Origin: Eledone cirrhosa
Lineage: Eukaryota
Direction of reading: 5' to 3'
Length of the DNA stretch: 64,000 nucleotides
Assembly (NCBI GenBank): GCA_964016885.1
Contig: OZ024747.1
Span: 86,614,001 to 86,678,000 of the forward strand
Made by a program: the position numbers and the translations under genes. Positions 1,057-62,330 of the stretch are shown piece after piece. The notes beneath the pieces were generated by a model. It ran no database searches, was not told the origin of the DNA, and saw only the letters and a program-made list of their open reading frames with translations. Each line of letters opens with the position of its first letter. Position 1 is the first letter of the stretch.

Positions 1057-1060
<4 letters not shown>

Positions 1061-1520
1061 ATTTAAAAGAATAGAGGTGTAACACACGAGTTGTGATATA
1101 TTGGTAAAAGGAAAAGAAAATGCTGACAAATTGTTCCCAGTGAAAAATAGTTTAATTAGGAATAAGTAAAAATAAGTAATAAGTATTGGTTAGTATTCAG
1201 TTTTAGTTTTAAGTTTTTACCGGTTGCGCATTTCTAATGCTTTTCAAAAATAATTTTGAGATAGAGCGCCCGTGATGTTTGCTCTCATCTGATTAGTTTT
1301 GGAAATTCTACCTGTTTTATGTGAAAAAAGTGGCTCCAGAGGTATTAAAATAATTTTCGCGCCAATTCGTGTTGCAAAAATTCTTGTGGTCAAAACAATT
1401 TTGATTGGTCGGTAGAGGTCACGTGAATGTTAAAAATTGATTTTGCGCCAAATGTAGGTTTGTCGAAGAGTGTCCTTTTTCGTCTGATTGAGAAGTCACT
1501 GAAAAATAAGTCTTTTAAAA
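1057..1520 (-). mobile_element. HHR-element family N copy abutting (TA)n; degenerate hammerhead at 1213-1250
   Basis: Tail GAGGTGT..ACACGAGT matches 31848-31868 and 55430-55440. Minus strand reads TTGAAAA gcat-tagaa-atgc GCAA ccgg TA aaa. The right boundary is uncertain. Confidence 0.55.
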
Positions 1521-2341
1521 CAAATATGTGTGTGTGTAGTAAAGAGGTTCATTGTTGTGATAATTGTCAGTAGGGATGTGGTGTGAATTGCAGTCATGTT
1601 GAAAGGTCAACAGTTCAGGTGCCTATTAAGACAAATATGTGTGTGTGTGTGTGTGTGTGTGTAGCAGAGTAATTCGTGGTAGAGGGATCGGTCAGTAGGA
1701 ATGTGTCTGTACGTATGTGGGGGATATTTTAACATGTTGAAAGATATATTTCAGCTCTTGTCTTACGGAGATGTGTGTGTGTGTGTATATGTCTCTTTGT
1801 ATGTTAGTGTACGCGTGTGTATGTGTGTGTGTATATATATGTGTGTGTGTGTGTATATGTGTGTATGTGTGTGTGTGGGTGGTGGCGGTGGACCAGTATT
1901 TTTGTGATACTGGTAAAAATGGTGTACATTCGATATTTTCAGTTCTTGTGATATCCCGGGCATACAGAAATGCAGAAATTTCCGGTAAGCTGTGTATTGT
2001 TGAAAGAGTGAATATCTTTCAAGGGTTATATAATAGTATTTGTCTTAACCCGAGAGCCGATATTTTTAATCGCTGTCCTACACGCTGTTACGTAAATTGA
2101 AAGACTCGGAATAACCATAAATTTTACCCGGAATGAGATAATTCAAACGAAAATTGTCTCCCCTATCACCAAACTATCGTCGTCCACTATGCAGAATCCA
2201 GTCAGCTTATATACACTTCACCGCAGCCATACACGCGGGTTGAAAATCCGCTCGGTGATACGCGCGCCTTCGAGTTTCCTGATTTGTGATGGAACTAACT
2301 CTCTCTCCTCTTCTCTCTCACTCTCTCTCTCTCACTCTCTC

Positions 2342-4375: not shown

Positions 4376-4502
4376 TCTCTCCTTTCTTTCGCCGAAAAGA
4401 AGTAAGTGACATTATCACTACTTTAAAACCGATAGCGTATGGTCTTCTAAATGTTTTTAATTAAACATACGGTATATTGCCAAATATACTATACATACAT
4501 TC

Positions 4503-4586
<84 letters not shown>

Positions 4587-4588
<2 letters not shown>

Positions 4589-5068
4589 GTGTGTATAATG
4601 GTAGCTATGGTGCTTCCATAGGCGGTATGCCAAAATTAGCACTCAATATTCTTACAGAGCAGAGTGTGAATAGTATAAAAAAACGAAAAATCAGTGATGC
4701 ATCTGGACTCAGTTTATTGCGTGTTACAATTGTTTTGCCGGCAGGTAGCTCGAGACATGATCACTGTATGGATCTGGATCTGGCTGATTCTACGGCTGCA
4801 GGTTCCTTCGGATACATGCAATTCTTTCGGAGCACCTTCAAAAAACATCTTCCACTCTTGTAATACCATTGGCATGAAGGTGTCTTTTGATGATAACACC
4901 CCAGTGAGAAAATTTGCTCCAAAAGAATTGCATGTGTCCGAAGGAACCTGCAGCCGTAGAATCAGCCAGATCCATACAGTGATCATGTCTCGAACTACCT
5001 GCCGGCGAAACAATTGTAATACGCAATAAACTGAGTCCACATGCATCACTGATTTTTCGTTTTTTTTA

Positions 5069-5074
<6 letters not shown>
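4587..5074. mobile_element. Fold-back element family Q in (TA)n with HHR-like motif (4934-5022, +)
   Basis: Arms 4670-4834 and 4915-5074, tail 4587-4669. Motif reads gtgt CCGAAGG..long stem II..GAAA caattg TA atac. Confidence 0.8.
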
Positions 5075-15820: not shown

Positions 15821-16359
15821 CCCCTGCCAAACATATGATTATGTTTGATAGGTCTTGAGGTAAGGGCTGTGTCCATGACAATTGCAAGCCCTCCAAGACC
15901 TAAGAGACTGATGCTGTTGATGTTCATTTATTTATATATATATTCAAATTTTTGCAGGTAGAGTCCACAAGAAAAGCCACTCAGAGCTATAATTCTAGAC
16001 GGACGAGGTCCTGCGAGGAAAGAAGTGAATGTAGTGGTTAGTGAGGGGATTTGGGGACATAATTTGGGTGATGAATGGAGAAGAGACGAGAGGGCATAAG
16101 CATGCCTGCTCCTCTTTTGGTGATTTGGTGGAGATTTTAGGAAGTTGTGTTACCATGTAGACGTTTTCTCCGGGATGGGTGGAATCGGTAGAGTGGCCGA
16201 CGACATTCGGCGTTTTATTTTATTCGTTCAAATATTTTAGTAACCTCAAAGAGGTCAACTTGGCCTCTCATCTTTCGCGATTAAAGAAAATAAAGTATTA
16301 CTCGTGTATTGAAGGTGCTCGCCATAGTTAAGATATTGGGCTTACAAATTAAAACTTAC

Positions 16360-17341
16360 CTGAATAATTAGAATTTTCATCCCAGGCTGCCCACATCTGA
16401 CACACGAAAAAAGGTGACCAGCATATAAAATAGCAGGCAACTACACTTAAAGATAGAGCCACAGATCGCACTTTGGCCCGAGAAATTCCTCTGTTGTAAT
16501 TGACACTCTGTCCTTCCATATTCTCATCGGAAAAGCCTCGAGTTGAATTGTTTTGTCCAATACGAGTAGATACACGATTTGTGAGAAAGGTTCGATTTCG
16601 TATTCGGGAACTGCCCAAAGTAGAACGTGCTCTCTTCCACACAGCATAGCATATCATTCCATAAAACAGAGTAAGTGCTACTGTGGGTAAAATCCAAATT
16701 GCCACTGTTAACCAAGTGATGTAAAATTTTAAAGTCCATTCGGGGTTAAAGGTCGCCCGGCAAGTGAGACCAATACACGTGTATTTCATGCTCCATATGA
16801 AAAACTGTGGAATACTGAATAGAAACGATAGTACCCACGCAATGAAAACCATAACATGCACCCTGGCAGTTGTCCACTTGTGACTGGATAAAGGGTGACA
16901 TATGGCAAAATAACGGTCAATGGCTGTTGCCACAAGGACATAGCTGGATGCATATACAGCTACACTTTGTAGATAAGTGATAACGCGGCAAAGTAAATCA
17001 GTGCCGAGAAATAAGGACGTAATGTCCCAAATCATTTGAGGTAGGTTGTTAAAGAAGGCGACGAAGAGGTCAGTCAAAGACAGGTGCAAAATAAACAGAT
17101 GCATGCGAGTCAATTTTTTTCTCTGCTTGAACAACGTTATTAGAACAACGCTGTTACCTAAGACAGTAACTATGATTAAGGTGGCCAGGGTAATAATTTC
17201 GGCATTAGCGAGCGCTTCGTCACGTTGCAGCAGTTGAGTTTCATTCTTTGTCTCGGAGAAATTATTCCATATTTCCGTCGACGAAAAATTATTCCATATT
17301 TGCGTCGAGAGTTCATTTGGGTTTGTAGTGATGTCTATCAT
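16360..17341 (-). CDS. CTR1: Vasopressin/oxytocin-family class A GPCR, cephalotocin receptor 1-like; first coding exon (TM1-TM6)
   Basis: Contains GNSVV (TM1), RMHLFILHLSLTDLFVAFF..LPQMIWDIT (TM2), ASSYVLVATAIDRYFAICHPL (TM3), ISRAKVRSV and CWSPFFVCQMWAAWD (TM6), plus N-terminal NFS glycosylation sites. It is very similar to the O. vulgaris CTR1 sequence as I recall it. The exon ends at CAG|GTAAGT (GT at 16359-16358), the intron position typical of this receptor family. Confidence 0.93.
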
Positions 17342-17467
17342 AGCTGTTACTTTGATTTTTGTTGAAGAAAATATATACTGAATTGGAAAGTATTAGTAAA
17401 TAAACGTATCCTTTTTTATTAGTAAATTCGATTGTAAACAGAGTATTGCCAGTTAAATTAGCCACAG

Positions 17468-17717: not shown

Positions 17718-18540
17718 CTAGCAGCAGTACCCAGCGTTGCCTGGGTAGGTAAAATAATATCTGCTTTGATGAAAAGGTGTTGATCCTAGCGACTGCTTCT
17801 CGATGACTCATCTATGGCCACACACAGGCCATGCGGGGAAGGGTGGTGATGAATCTCTATCACCGAGAAACGCGGGTGAGTGACGAAGGGGCATGCTGGG
17901 GGAGGGAGTTTCGAATTTGAACGAAATCGGTTGAAAAATGTGGGAGCTAGAGCCGAAAAGGCGGAAATTTGAGTGAAAAGGTGGTATTTTCGAAAATTAA
18001 AGCGGCTGCTACGCCGTTCCTAAACAAAATAACCAAAATGTAAAGCCACTTTAAGACGTGAAATAATCAGATCTAGCGTAGTGTAAAATTTGAACAAAGT
18101 AGGTTGAAAAAGTGGAAATTTGAGCCTAAAAGTGGTATTTTTGAATATTTAAGCGGCTGCCACGCCGTCCCTGAACAACAAATGCAAAATATAAAGCCAT
18201 TACAGGATGTGCAATGATAAATTCTATTTTGCTTTAAAATCTGAACGAAATCGGTGGCAAAATGTGGGAGCTAGAGCCAAAAATCTTATTTTTCGATAAC
18301 CCCCCCCCCCCCCCCCCCCCAAAAAAAAAGGTGACCCCCCCTATCGATTTTTATCTGCAGAATGACCCAGGAATAAAAAAAAAACGATACCCTGATATAT
18401 AGAAAGCACTCCCCGCTGAATAATCTATGAGTCTGTAAAGTTTCATGAAAATCGGTCGTAAGATGTAGGCCCCTATAGGTAATACACAGACACACAGACA
18501 CACAGACACACACGCATACTTAATTTTATATATATACAGA
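17718..18540 (-). mobile_element. Non-autonomous Helitron
   Basis: Minus strand: A|TCTGTATATATATAAAA, then (GTGTCT)-type repeats, hairpin ACCCAGGCAACGCTGGGT and CTAG|T. Internal roughly 160-nt tandem subrepeats at 17913-18285. Confidence 0.85.
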
Positions 18541-31526: not shown

Positions 31527-31574
<48 letters not shown>

Positions 31575-31597
31575 AAAAGAGAGAGAGAGAGAGAGAG

Positions 31598-31898
31598 AAA
31601 AAGATGAAATCGAAAATGCAACTGGAGTCTTATTTTAAAAATATATATATATTTATTTGGTTCCTTTACCGGTTTCGCAGTTCTTCTGCTTTTCAAAAGT
31701 AGAGTTGAGATGGAGGGTCTGTGGTTTTTCTCACATCTGTGAGAAAAACCACAGACCCTCCATCTCAAGGAACCAAATAAATATGTATATTTTTAAAAAA
31801 TAAGACTCCAGTTGCATTTTCGATTTCATCTTTTTTCTTTATACTTTCACTCGTGTAGGACACCTCGGTTATTTTTCATTTTGTAAAAAAAACCTCAC

Positions 31899-31905
<7 letters not shown>
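31598..31905. mobile_element. HHR-element family N, fold-back; variant HHR at 31665-31699 (-)
   Basis: Arms 31598-31664 and 31769-31835, inner palindrome 31706-31768. Minus strand: ctt TTGAAAA gcag-aagaa-ctgc GAAA ccgg TA aag. Confidence 0.82.
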
Positions 31906-33002
<1,097 letters not shown>

Positions 33003-35452: not shown

Positions 35453-36795
35453 ATCATCATCATCATCTGGTGCCATGTCTGTTCCAGATATCGGCGATTC
35501 CACAAAGAATCAACTTCACCAAACTGTATCTTCTGTTTATCTGGCCAAATCACTACAATTGCCTCTTTCTAATAGGACGAACAAGAAATCTTTCCATGCA
35601 GCCCTATCTGAAACCTCTTCGATTCATTTTGAGATGGCTGATCTCGCTATCTATTCTTATAGCAACCTCTTGTCCCCAATATAAATTTGGAAGGACTCGC
35701 TGGTCTTCGCCATCTACATGTAATTCTTGGAGTATACTGAATAGATCATGTCTCACTTTGTCAAACGCTTTTGAATAGTCTATGAAGCATAAACAGATGT
35801 CCTTTTGAACTTCGATTGATCTTTCTAATACCGTGGATAGGGAGAAGTTGGCGTTTTCTAGTGCTCTTGTTCGGAACAAAACTGAATTGGGTATCTGATA
35901 TTTCCGAGTAAATTTTTCTCTCAATTTTTTTCTTGAGAATGCAGAGGAGAAATTTTGTTATGTAACTCATACAACTAATTGTTTTGTTTCGGTCACACTC
36001 CGTGGTCCTGGGCTTCTTTAATGTCCTGGAGGAGTACTCCACAGTCATATATGATGTTAAACAATTTCGTAAGTTCAGCAATTCCTATTTCAACTAGGAC
36101 CTCCAGTAACTTGGTTGTTATTTGATCTGAACCCAATGCCTTGCTACCCTTCATTTTATTCAGTGCTTTATGTGCTTCATTCTTGAGAATTGGTGGATCT
36201 TCAAAGTTTTATTTCTTATCTGGGGTGGGGTTGGGGTTGCGTTTATCATAAAATAGTTCTAAATATTCCAGCCATCTCTTCAAAATATTACTTTTGTGCA
36301 TAAGAATGTTTCCGCCTTTTGCTTTTATGCAGCCTATTTTTGAAGACGATTTTCTTCCGGAAATCTCTTTCATTTATTCATGCCTGTATTTGCTGTCATC
36401 CCCGTTATAGCATTCGATTACTATGAACTGTTCGTTAATCCAAAATAATTTGTTGCATTCGTTCTTAATGTTTTTACCTAATTCGCGATAACTCTGTTGT
36501 TTTGTTTTTTCACTTTCCGCCATTGCTCGTTGAAATCTCAGATATCCTGAGTCATCTATGTTTTATGGTCTTTCCGCCATGTAGTTTTCTGAATGTCTTC
36601 TTTTGCCGATTTTTGAATGCATTCTTTCATGTTCTTTCATATCTCTTCAATATTTATAAAATAGTCCAGAGCGTTAAAAGTATTCCTGACACAAATGGAA
36701 TATTTTAGTTTTACATCTCCATTTTCCTTCAAAAGGTTGTATTGGAGTTTATGTTGGAATTTGGATCTGCTGGTCTTTATCAGTCTTAGATTCAT
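35453..36795 (-). mobile_element. RTE-clade LINE relic (RT region, internally deleted)
   Basis: ERSIEVQKDICLCFIDYSKAFDKVRH, LYWGQEVAIRIDSEIS and TISCMSYITKFLLCIL; (TGA)n 3' tail. Confidence 0.88.
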
Positions 36796-44993: not shown

Positions 44994-45416
44994 CTACACA
45001 ACAGATATCCTTAATTCTCTTGAGCCACATGGAACTCCTACACATAAACTTTTCCTGAAGGTTGGCGTCCCAATAATGCTTCTAAGATCCTCCTAAATTA
45101 TGCAATCGGACAAGGTTTATTGTGAAGACATTACCACCTAATGTGATAGAAGCTACCATCATCACTGGGTGTGCCTCAGGGGAAGATATCAAACCAACAG
45201 ACATGCCATTTGAGTTCAAACGAACACAATTCCCAGTGCGACTTTGCTTTGCAATATCTATCAATAAAGCTGGAGGTCAGACTGAAATCTACTGGCTTGC
45301 ACTTAAGTTAGCCTCGTTTTTCTCATTGTCAACTTTACGTTGGCTGTTCCAGAATGGGTAGTTTACAAGACTTACTTGTATATGCTCAAAACCAGAAAAC
45401 AAAGAATACCGTTTAC
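44994..45416 (+). pseudogene. Helitron RepHel PIF1-type helicase C-terminal relic
   Basis: LNSLEPHGTPTHKLFLKVGVPIMLLR / PPKLCNRTR..NVIEATIITG..PTDMPFEFKRTQFPVRLCFAISINKAGGQT / FSHCQLYVGCSR; frameshifted. Confidence 0.9.
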
Positions 45417-55377: not shown

Positions 55378-55560
55378 AAAAAAAAAAGAAAATGAGGGGG
55401 ATTTTTAAATGAAAACAAAACTAGATATCGTACACGAGTGAAAGTATAAGGAAAAGAAATCGAAAATCCAACTGGAGTCTTTTTAAGAATATTTATTTAA
55501 GAAACAAATATATATTCTTAAAAAGACTCCAGTTGCACTTTCGATTTCTTTTCCTTATAT
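55378..55560. mobile_element. Family N fold-back lacking the HHR
   Basis: AAATCGAAAAT(C/G)CAACTGGAGTCTT arms match 31608-31632. Confidence 0.78.
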
Positions 55561-61789: not shown

Positions 61790-62330
61790 AACCGCCTACA
61801 TCTCAACAAAAAGAAAAGAAGCTGGTAGTTGTTGACAAATTCGTCTACCTAAGATGCGAATATTGATGAATAATTAGAGTATAGGATCTCCAGGGCTTGA
61901 TCTGTGTTTGGAAAGAAAGCATGGAACAGGAAAGGCATCAGTATCCAAACAAAGTGAAACTTCTATAAATCTATCAGTGGTCCTCCTCCTCTTCTCTACA
62001 GTTATCATACCAGGAGGTTCAATTCATTTCATGAGATGCTTGAAAAGAATTATGAAAGTCAAGCAAGAAGACAGAATTTTAAACACAGAAGTGTTTGGGA
62101 AAGCAGAATCAGAAAGTATTCACGCCATCTTCAAACGCTCTCAACTGAGATGGACAGGCCATGTGCCGCATCAAGACTAAGGAAGCGCTATAAGGACTTT
62201 ATGAAAGAACTTTAAAAAGACTGCGAACTTCAGCATGATGTCTCTGAACTTGCAGTTCGGGGTAGATCCCTATGACAATCTCTTATTCGCTCCGGATTCA
62301 ACAGCTATGAGCAACAGATAAGAAAATCGA
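61790..62330 (+). mobile_element. RTE-clade LINE 3' relic
   Basis: VVDKFVYL, GISIQTKVKL, MRCLKRIMKVKQEDRILNTEV..SQLRWTGHV and RKRYKD. Confidence 0.82.

Follow-up and report, generated by a model that had tools for sequence, protein, structure and literature searches.

A U3-A8 minimal hammerhead motif in an abundant octopod repeat of likely Penelope-like origin

Genomic setting

The analyzed stretch of DNA, hereafter the window, comprises 64,000 nucleotides from Eledone cirrhosa and is rich in microsatellites. It contains a large exon of a cephalotocin receptor 1 orthologue (16349-17392, minus strand) with 85% identity to the Octopus bimaculoides protein and 78% identity to that of Argonauta, which identifies the host as an octopod. 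The last exon of the receptor was not found in the window, and a weak tblastn match at 3895-3818 was considered for that role and rejected. Two copies of a 151-bp unit occupy 17955-18293, just upstream of the receptor exon. A near-palindromic segment at 4465-5070, in which opposite-strand open reading frames (ORFs) encode the same peptide pieces, suggests another inverted duplication. Peptide fragments at 35604-36084 (minus strand) and 61878-62180 (plus strand) are presumably remnants of LINE reverse transcriptases, and one at 45086-45361 (plus strand) we take to be a remnant of a Helitron/PIF1-type helicase; the pieces of these fragments that were scanned gave no Pfam match.

Three copies of one repeat family are the subject of this study. 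Copy A (31598-31900) bears a hammerhead motif, copy B (1060-1530) a diverged one, and copy C (55407-55559) none.

The hammerhead motif of copy A

The right arm of copy A holds a minimal type I hammerhead motif with a U3-A8 core (31664..31699, minus strand), identified with a structural descriptor and from the letters themselves. On the minus strand it opens with the 5' strand of stem I (ctt, 31699-31697), followed by the core UUGAAAA (TTGAAAA, 31696-31690; U3 at 31696, A8 at 31691, A9 at 31690) and a 4-bp stem II (gcag at 31689-86, ctgc at 31680-77). The GAAA box (31676-73) overlaps the palindrome ACCGGT of stem III (31673-68), and the motif closes with A at H17 (31667) and the 3' strand of stem I (aag, 31666-64), which gives a stem I of 3 bp. 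The predicted cut falls between 31667 and 31666, that is, after A17. The core boxes UUGAAAA, GAAA and UA are arranged as in type I hammerheads, and positions 3 and 8 make a Watson-Crick pair. G10.1 comes immediately after A9, with no extra base between the two; the G10.1-C11.1 pair is present, and the stem III insert is a 2-nt CG. The sequence-only reading had described this minus-strand motif with its UUGAAAA core, and both the letters and the full descriptor bear that out. It had also located the motif correctly (31665..31699) except at one end, which runs one base further, to 31664.

The diverged copy and its compensated changes

The second hammerhead, which has the same U3-A8 core and had been placed at 1213-1250 beforehand, was recovered at 1215..1250 (minus strand). 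It lies within the body of copy B (1060..1530, minus strand), whose left edge is at (TA)n and whose right edge is approximate. The two copies are 78.9% identical over 76 nt and differ at 6 of the 36 motif positions. Four of these six differences make up two compensated pairs, one in stem I and one in stem II, so that stem II shows covariation between the copies; the others are a change in loop II and A13C (GCAA for GAAA), a lesion absent from the earlier account. The ACCGGU palindrome is present in both. When six changes were placed at random 1,000,000 times, two compensated pairs resulted in 579 trials; the structure had been chosen with the sequences already in view. A13 is conserved in hammerheads, and copy B is probably dead because of A13C.

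Copy B has no inversion, and its layout comprises a longer upstream region, the motif, the downstream segment and a tail-like end. The upstream part resembles, when compared by eye, a loose-end consensus of the family built from reads. A motif cluster upstream of the hammerhead (1330-1460, minus strand) includes CCAAT, CACGTG and two TTGGCGC, which we take to be promoter motifs, possibly those of an internal promoter of the element. Since the last exon of the receptor was not found in the window, copy B may lie in sense orientation inside a receptor intron.

The family in public reads

Four of 20 sequencing runs (X1, X2, X18 and X4) were compared with 31606-31900 at 80% likeness and with a 3% variant floor, positions 31606-31667 being masked. 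X1 and X2 represent one sample, possibly close to the source of the window, and X18 consists of RAD reads, possibly from few loci. Matches were found for 7,555 contigs in X1, 6,534 contigs in X2 and 3,692 reads in X18, depths that do not equal copy number.

No A>G change at a frequency of at least 3% occurs in X1 or X2 anywhere in the compared stretch. C3 would appear as an A>G change at 31696 and is therefore below 3% in both runs, where variants at 30% were detected only 4-5 nt from U3, at 31700 and 31701. The one at 31700 would extend stem I to 4 bp. A T>C change at 31691, corresponding to G8, is not among the 40 of 78 variants listed; the remainder include a single T>C for X1 and X2 and, for X18, six T>C and an A>G, so that G8 may be present in the family as a minor fraction. 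In X4, which carries a second species label, a single contig covers the motif, and the five of its ten differences that were itemized include no change at position 3 or 8. U3 is thus the family state, as the sequence-only reading had proposed in calling U3-A8 a natural, family-level variant: it is found in both window copies, and C3 is rare in X1 and X2.

The wobble-keeping change C11.1U reaches about 5% in X1 and X2. The variants listed for X1 give no indication that the core is under selection, being not visibly sparser in the motif (three variants) than in the next 41 nt (four). In X18, a consensus of 175 reads leaving the ribozyme-less arm of copy A begins TTGAAAAGCA, with an agreement of 0.77.

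Chance tests and standard searches

The full structural descriptor matched one site in the window, or two when A13 was left free, and none in any of 300 block-wise dinucleotide shuffles of the window. The bare core pattern without stems gave 16 matches against 12.4 expected and is not enriched, and the signal therefore resides in the stems and the palindrome. If the motif were a coincidence, or a C3-G8 hammerhead copy of the ordinary kind that had undergone two independent transitions, the explanation would draw on just this commonness of the A/T-rich core in the window. The shuffles speak against it, as do the U3-A8 pair common to both diverged copies and the rarity of C3 in X1 and X2; we regard it as very improbable and largely refuted.

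Rfam returned no match to the motif at gathering score. At E<=10, 31560-31920 gave 31 matches, none to a hammerhead family; the top ones were miRNA hairpin models lying on the perfect fold-back of copy A, far under their own thresholds, and were rejected. The earlier expectation that CUGANGA-type searches overlook the variant is consistent with this lack of any Rfam hammerhead match. No viral contig scanned contained the family motif. A metagenome scan that allowed any base at positions 3 and 8 gave six loci, none with U3-A8 together with both stems and none sharing the family flanks apart from one 33-nt, motif-only match (L002). Neither scan yielded a member of the octopod repeat family. The contig at L002:4001-4031 has CUGAUAA, a 4-bp stem and GAAACCGGUA; it is hammerhead-like with a C3-A8 mismatch and lacks stem I. 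The resemblance is probably due to chance, and the locus was treated as unrelated to the octopod family.

Predicted folding and cleavage

In anatomy the motif corresponds to the minimal hammerheads of Penelope type. Stem III is too short for a single molecule to fold as a hammerhead, and two RNA molecules would instead pair through ACCGGU. Copies paired in this manner would cut the RNA of the element after A17, and because U3-A8 retains the Watson-Crick pair between positions 3 and 8, the chemistry would be standard. Two-strand fold prediction does form the 6-bp palindromic ACCGGU duplex. The predicted minimum of the dimer (-19.1 kcal/mol) lacks stem I, while the hammerhead fold is at -15.5 kcal/mol; monomer folds are unremarkable, with z-scores of -0.4 to -1.1, and +0.4. 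A dimer that favors a fold without stem I fits the low or protein-assisted activity described in the available parts of PMC4209133 and PMC11167929. Dimer folding and cleavage after A17 are what we infer from these features.

Could the motif be a hammerhead-derived family feature that has lost cutting and spreads as a passenger in the terminal repeat of the element? The stem I of 3 bp, unformed in the predicted dimer, would fit such a history, and so would the fourth pair of stem II, where 31686 varies in the reads with no compensating change among the variants listed. According to the accessible text of PMC11167929, mutants of the Anolis hammerhead had no effect on insertion in vitro, and minimal hammerheads as reported in PMC4209133 have low activity in vitro. 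Against this stand the compensated changes in both stems between subfamilies, the retention of the 3-8 pair, and the activity in vitro of U3-A8 ribozymes (PMC3088659, from the passages available). We consider loss of cutting unlikely, and favor a motif that would still cut as a dimer.

Insertion structure

Copy A represents an insertion truncated at its 5' end and accompanied by an inverted partner. Its ribozyme-bearing arm (31598..31736, minus strand) consists of about 37 nt of upstream segment, the motif and about 68 nt of downstream segment; it is tailless and is followed by (CT)n(TA)n. In the inverted arm (31737..31900, plus strand) the upstream segment is joined straight to the post-cut segment, and a tail and then (TA)n follow. 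The arms, 69 nt long and 94% complementary, form a fold-back around a perfect hairpin at the inversion junction (31705..31768). Missing from the inverted arm are 40 nt that begin upstream of stem I and extend through H17; the 3' strand of stem I is retained. The observation that the opposite arm had lost the ribozyme segment therefore holds, with that strand of stem I left behind. Copy C (55407..55559) comprises two downstream segments of this family, inverted relative to each other, with the ribozyme absent. In copies A and C alike, only one of the arms carries a tail, of about 40-60 nt.

Two of the three window copies (A and C) are thus 5'-truncated with an adjacent inverted copy. All three adjoin (TA)n, in a window that itself has 117 tandem-repeat entries, and many family contigs end at 31836 or 31843, where they run into (TA)n. 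Several different inversion joints occur among the family reads. Interpretation of the fold-back as a MITE was rejected, since copy B is uninverted, the inversion joints differ between records and most records extend upstream. Copy A itself is probably inert, because it stands alone with no partner nearby, its stem I is 3 bp long, and its fold-back would sequester that stem; in a read-through transcript, this long fold-back would lock the 3' strand of stem I.

A GT donor-like site lies within the motif (31669-31668, minus strand), and a pyrimidine tract with AG in the tail (31857-31858, plus strand). Penelope-like elements (PLEs) can carry introns; speculatively, in an intact copy the two sites might delimit one of about 95 nt. 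Copy B has not retained the AG.

The inverted 5'-truncated arms, the one-sided tail and the (TA)n flanks are the grounds on which we read the repeat as Penelope-like. PLE tails measure 30-40 bp and are found at one end only, and a bias of insertion toward microsatellites is a trait of the Neptune and Naiad clades. The available parts of PMC8557442 list inverted copies with 5' truncation, tails on one side and a bias toward (TA)n as PLE traits, and the octopod insertion structure matches the Penelope structure given there and in PMC11167929. No reverse transcriptase or GIY-YIG gene stands beside any of the three copies in the ORF list, and Pfam, run on 5 of the 97 ORFs of the window, found only a receptor and no reverse transcriptase or endonuclease. 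Membership of the repeat among Penelope elements is likely, short of proven.

Positions 31736-31739 form a recurrent boundary, at which the fold-back turns and many family records start beside (TA)n; it may mark where transcription starts or where truncation is favored. An alternative reading makes the repeat a non-autonomous, PLE-derived unit of SINE or retrozyme kind, about 170-200 nt long, with transcription starting near 31736-31739 and mobilization in trans, rather than a set of truncated fragments from an autonomous PLE. Many copies do start at 31736-31738 beside (TA)n (31 contigs in X2 and 183 reads in X18), no ORF lies near any copy, and a preprint (bioRxiv 10.64898/2026.07.22.740005, in the portion available) ties retrozymes to the pLTRs of PLEs. 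However, as many or more records extend upstream at 31739 (47 and 43 contigs, 445 reads), like copy B; a tandem array of the unit is absent from the window, and stem I is not of the canonical 6-bp type. We hold a separate unit of this kind to be quite unlikely.

Our preferred reading, to which we assign a probability of roughly 0.8, takes the motif as a minimal type I hammerhead sequence, with a U3-A8 core, in an abundant octopod repeat that is likely the terminal repeat (pLTR) of a PLE; two copies would pair via ACCGGU and would cut the RNA after A17.

The arm junction

Identity between the inverted arm of copy A and the downstream segment begins exactly at 31666, the first base past the predicted cut, with a 2-nt AA microhomology at the joint that permits three placements. 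The right arm of copy C seems to start at about the same place, in an A/T-rich tract; the local aligner preferred another register, and this junction is therefore tentative. Among family records, 6 of the 15 joints listed (6 more are not itemized) land at 31767-31768. The reference arm itself begins at those positions, and we therefore count only the joint with known intervening letters, a contig joint seen in X1 and X2 that links an inverted arm to 31767 with one base between.

These joints hint that ribozyme-less arms start at the scissile bond. The reverse transcriptase would have run to the 5' end of an RNA already cut by the ribozyme and then switched by means of the 2-nt microhomology. 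We advance this as a doubtful proposal; a plain deletion, or a pile-up induced by the reference, may account for the joints instead. No description of junctions at the cut site was found in the portions available of the literature on PLE hammerheads, one review included. In Anolis, the available text of PMC11167929 reports that no RNA reads ending at the cut site were found, and the role of the hammerhead in Penelope-like elements is termed unclear in PMC8557442, as far as its accessible part goes.

Comparison with published hammerheads

Natural U3-A8 cores were reported by Perreault et al. (2011), and such ribozymes are described there as having proved active in vitro before (PMC3088659); the description of U3-A8 as a known compensatory variant agrees with this covariation in print. 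The covariation is the same as ours, in a general survey whose available passages contain no cephalopod case. In PLEs, U3-A8 was spotted in Cercyon of S. mansoni by Cervera and De la Pena (2014), whose descriptor with a U3-A8 core gave about 1,300 matches in Schistosoma (PMC4209133). Its supplement, in the part available, gives UUGAAAA in the PLE-linked row S. mansoni(4) and UUGAUAA in another row. Any novelty implied for the swap thus falls away, because it is published as natural (PMC3088659) and in minimal PLE hammerheads with the identical UUGAAAA (PMC4209133).

The Schistosoma Cercyon minimal hammerheads, as seen in the available text, resemble the octopod motif in being type I with U3-A8, a G10.1-C11.1 pair, a short stem I and a palindromic stem III region; they are mostly single dispersed copies with U-rich 5' and AU-rich 3' flanks. 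The octopod motif differs in lacking an extra base after position 9, in having the 2-nt CG insert in stem III and in its shorter stem II; its host is an octopod, and no PLE gene was found beside the window copies, whereas the S. mansoni(4) row is PLE-linked. An extra nucleotide after position 9 occurs in most published minimal hammerheads, but two published rows also lack it, and for this reason it does not define membership (PMC4209133, in the rows available). Stem I of minimal hammerheads has 2-5 bp; here its length is 3 bp, one pair being changed in a compensated manner in copy B, and 4 bp in the 30% variant. Drosophila, shrimp and mosquito PLE rows of the same source share the short palindromic stem III insert with the octopod motif and differ from it in being C3-G8, and the shrimp row also has a 4-bp stem II and no extra base after 9. 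No octopus row is contained in the available part of its supplementary file 2.

In the Anolis Poseidon element PAc (Frangieh et al. 2024, PMC11167929, from the text available), the hammerhead lies about 90 nt upstream of the first of two reverse transcription start sites that define the tail; the 3' ends in the octopod family follow the cut site after about 70-77 nt and after about 115-135 nt. PAc is unlike the octopod motif in its C3-G8 core, in an intact ORF that overlaps the motif and in activity that was demonstrated and is assisted by protein. Non-LTR retrozymes (PMC7229834, available portion) likewise place a type I hammerhead in a short, low-GC animal repeat, but they form tandem arrays with mostly canonical hammerheads, whereas the octopod copies are dispersed, inverted and minimal; no tandem hammerhead units of 150-450 nt, a retrozyme trait, were found in the window. 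The giant squid genome has 235 Rfam hammerhead_1 loci according to the available part of PMC6962438, and no cephalopod description of this repeat family was found in the portions of the literature available.

As to dimers, work by Lunse et al. in 2017 reportedly concerns PLE hammerhead dimers, to judge from its title, and may already cover this architecture.

Significance

The octopod motif is best described as a U3-A8 minimal hammerhead of Penelope type, a kind already in print for which the octopod host is new. The U3-A8 swap itself matters little, as it is known and predicted to keep the chemistry. With this finding, octopods join the hosts of U3-A8 hammerheads of Penelope type, which CUGANGA and Rfam searches overlook.

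The arm junctions, if they do mark the scissile bond, would carry a wider implication. The abundance of the family permits a purely computational test of whether the 5' ends of insertions pile up there. If they do, the octopus genome would preserve fossil traces of in vivo cutting of the retrotransposition template by a U3-A8 Penelope hammerhead, something yet to be demonstrated for Penelope-like elements.
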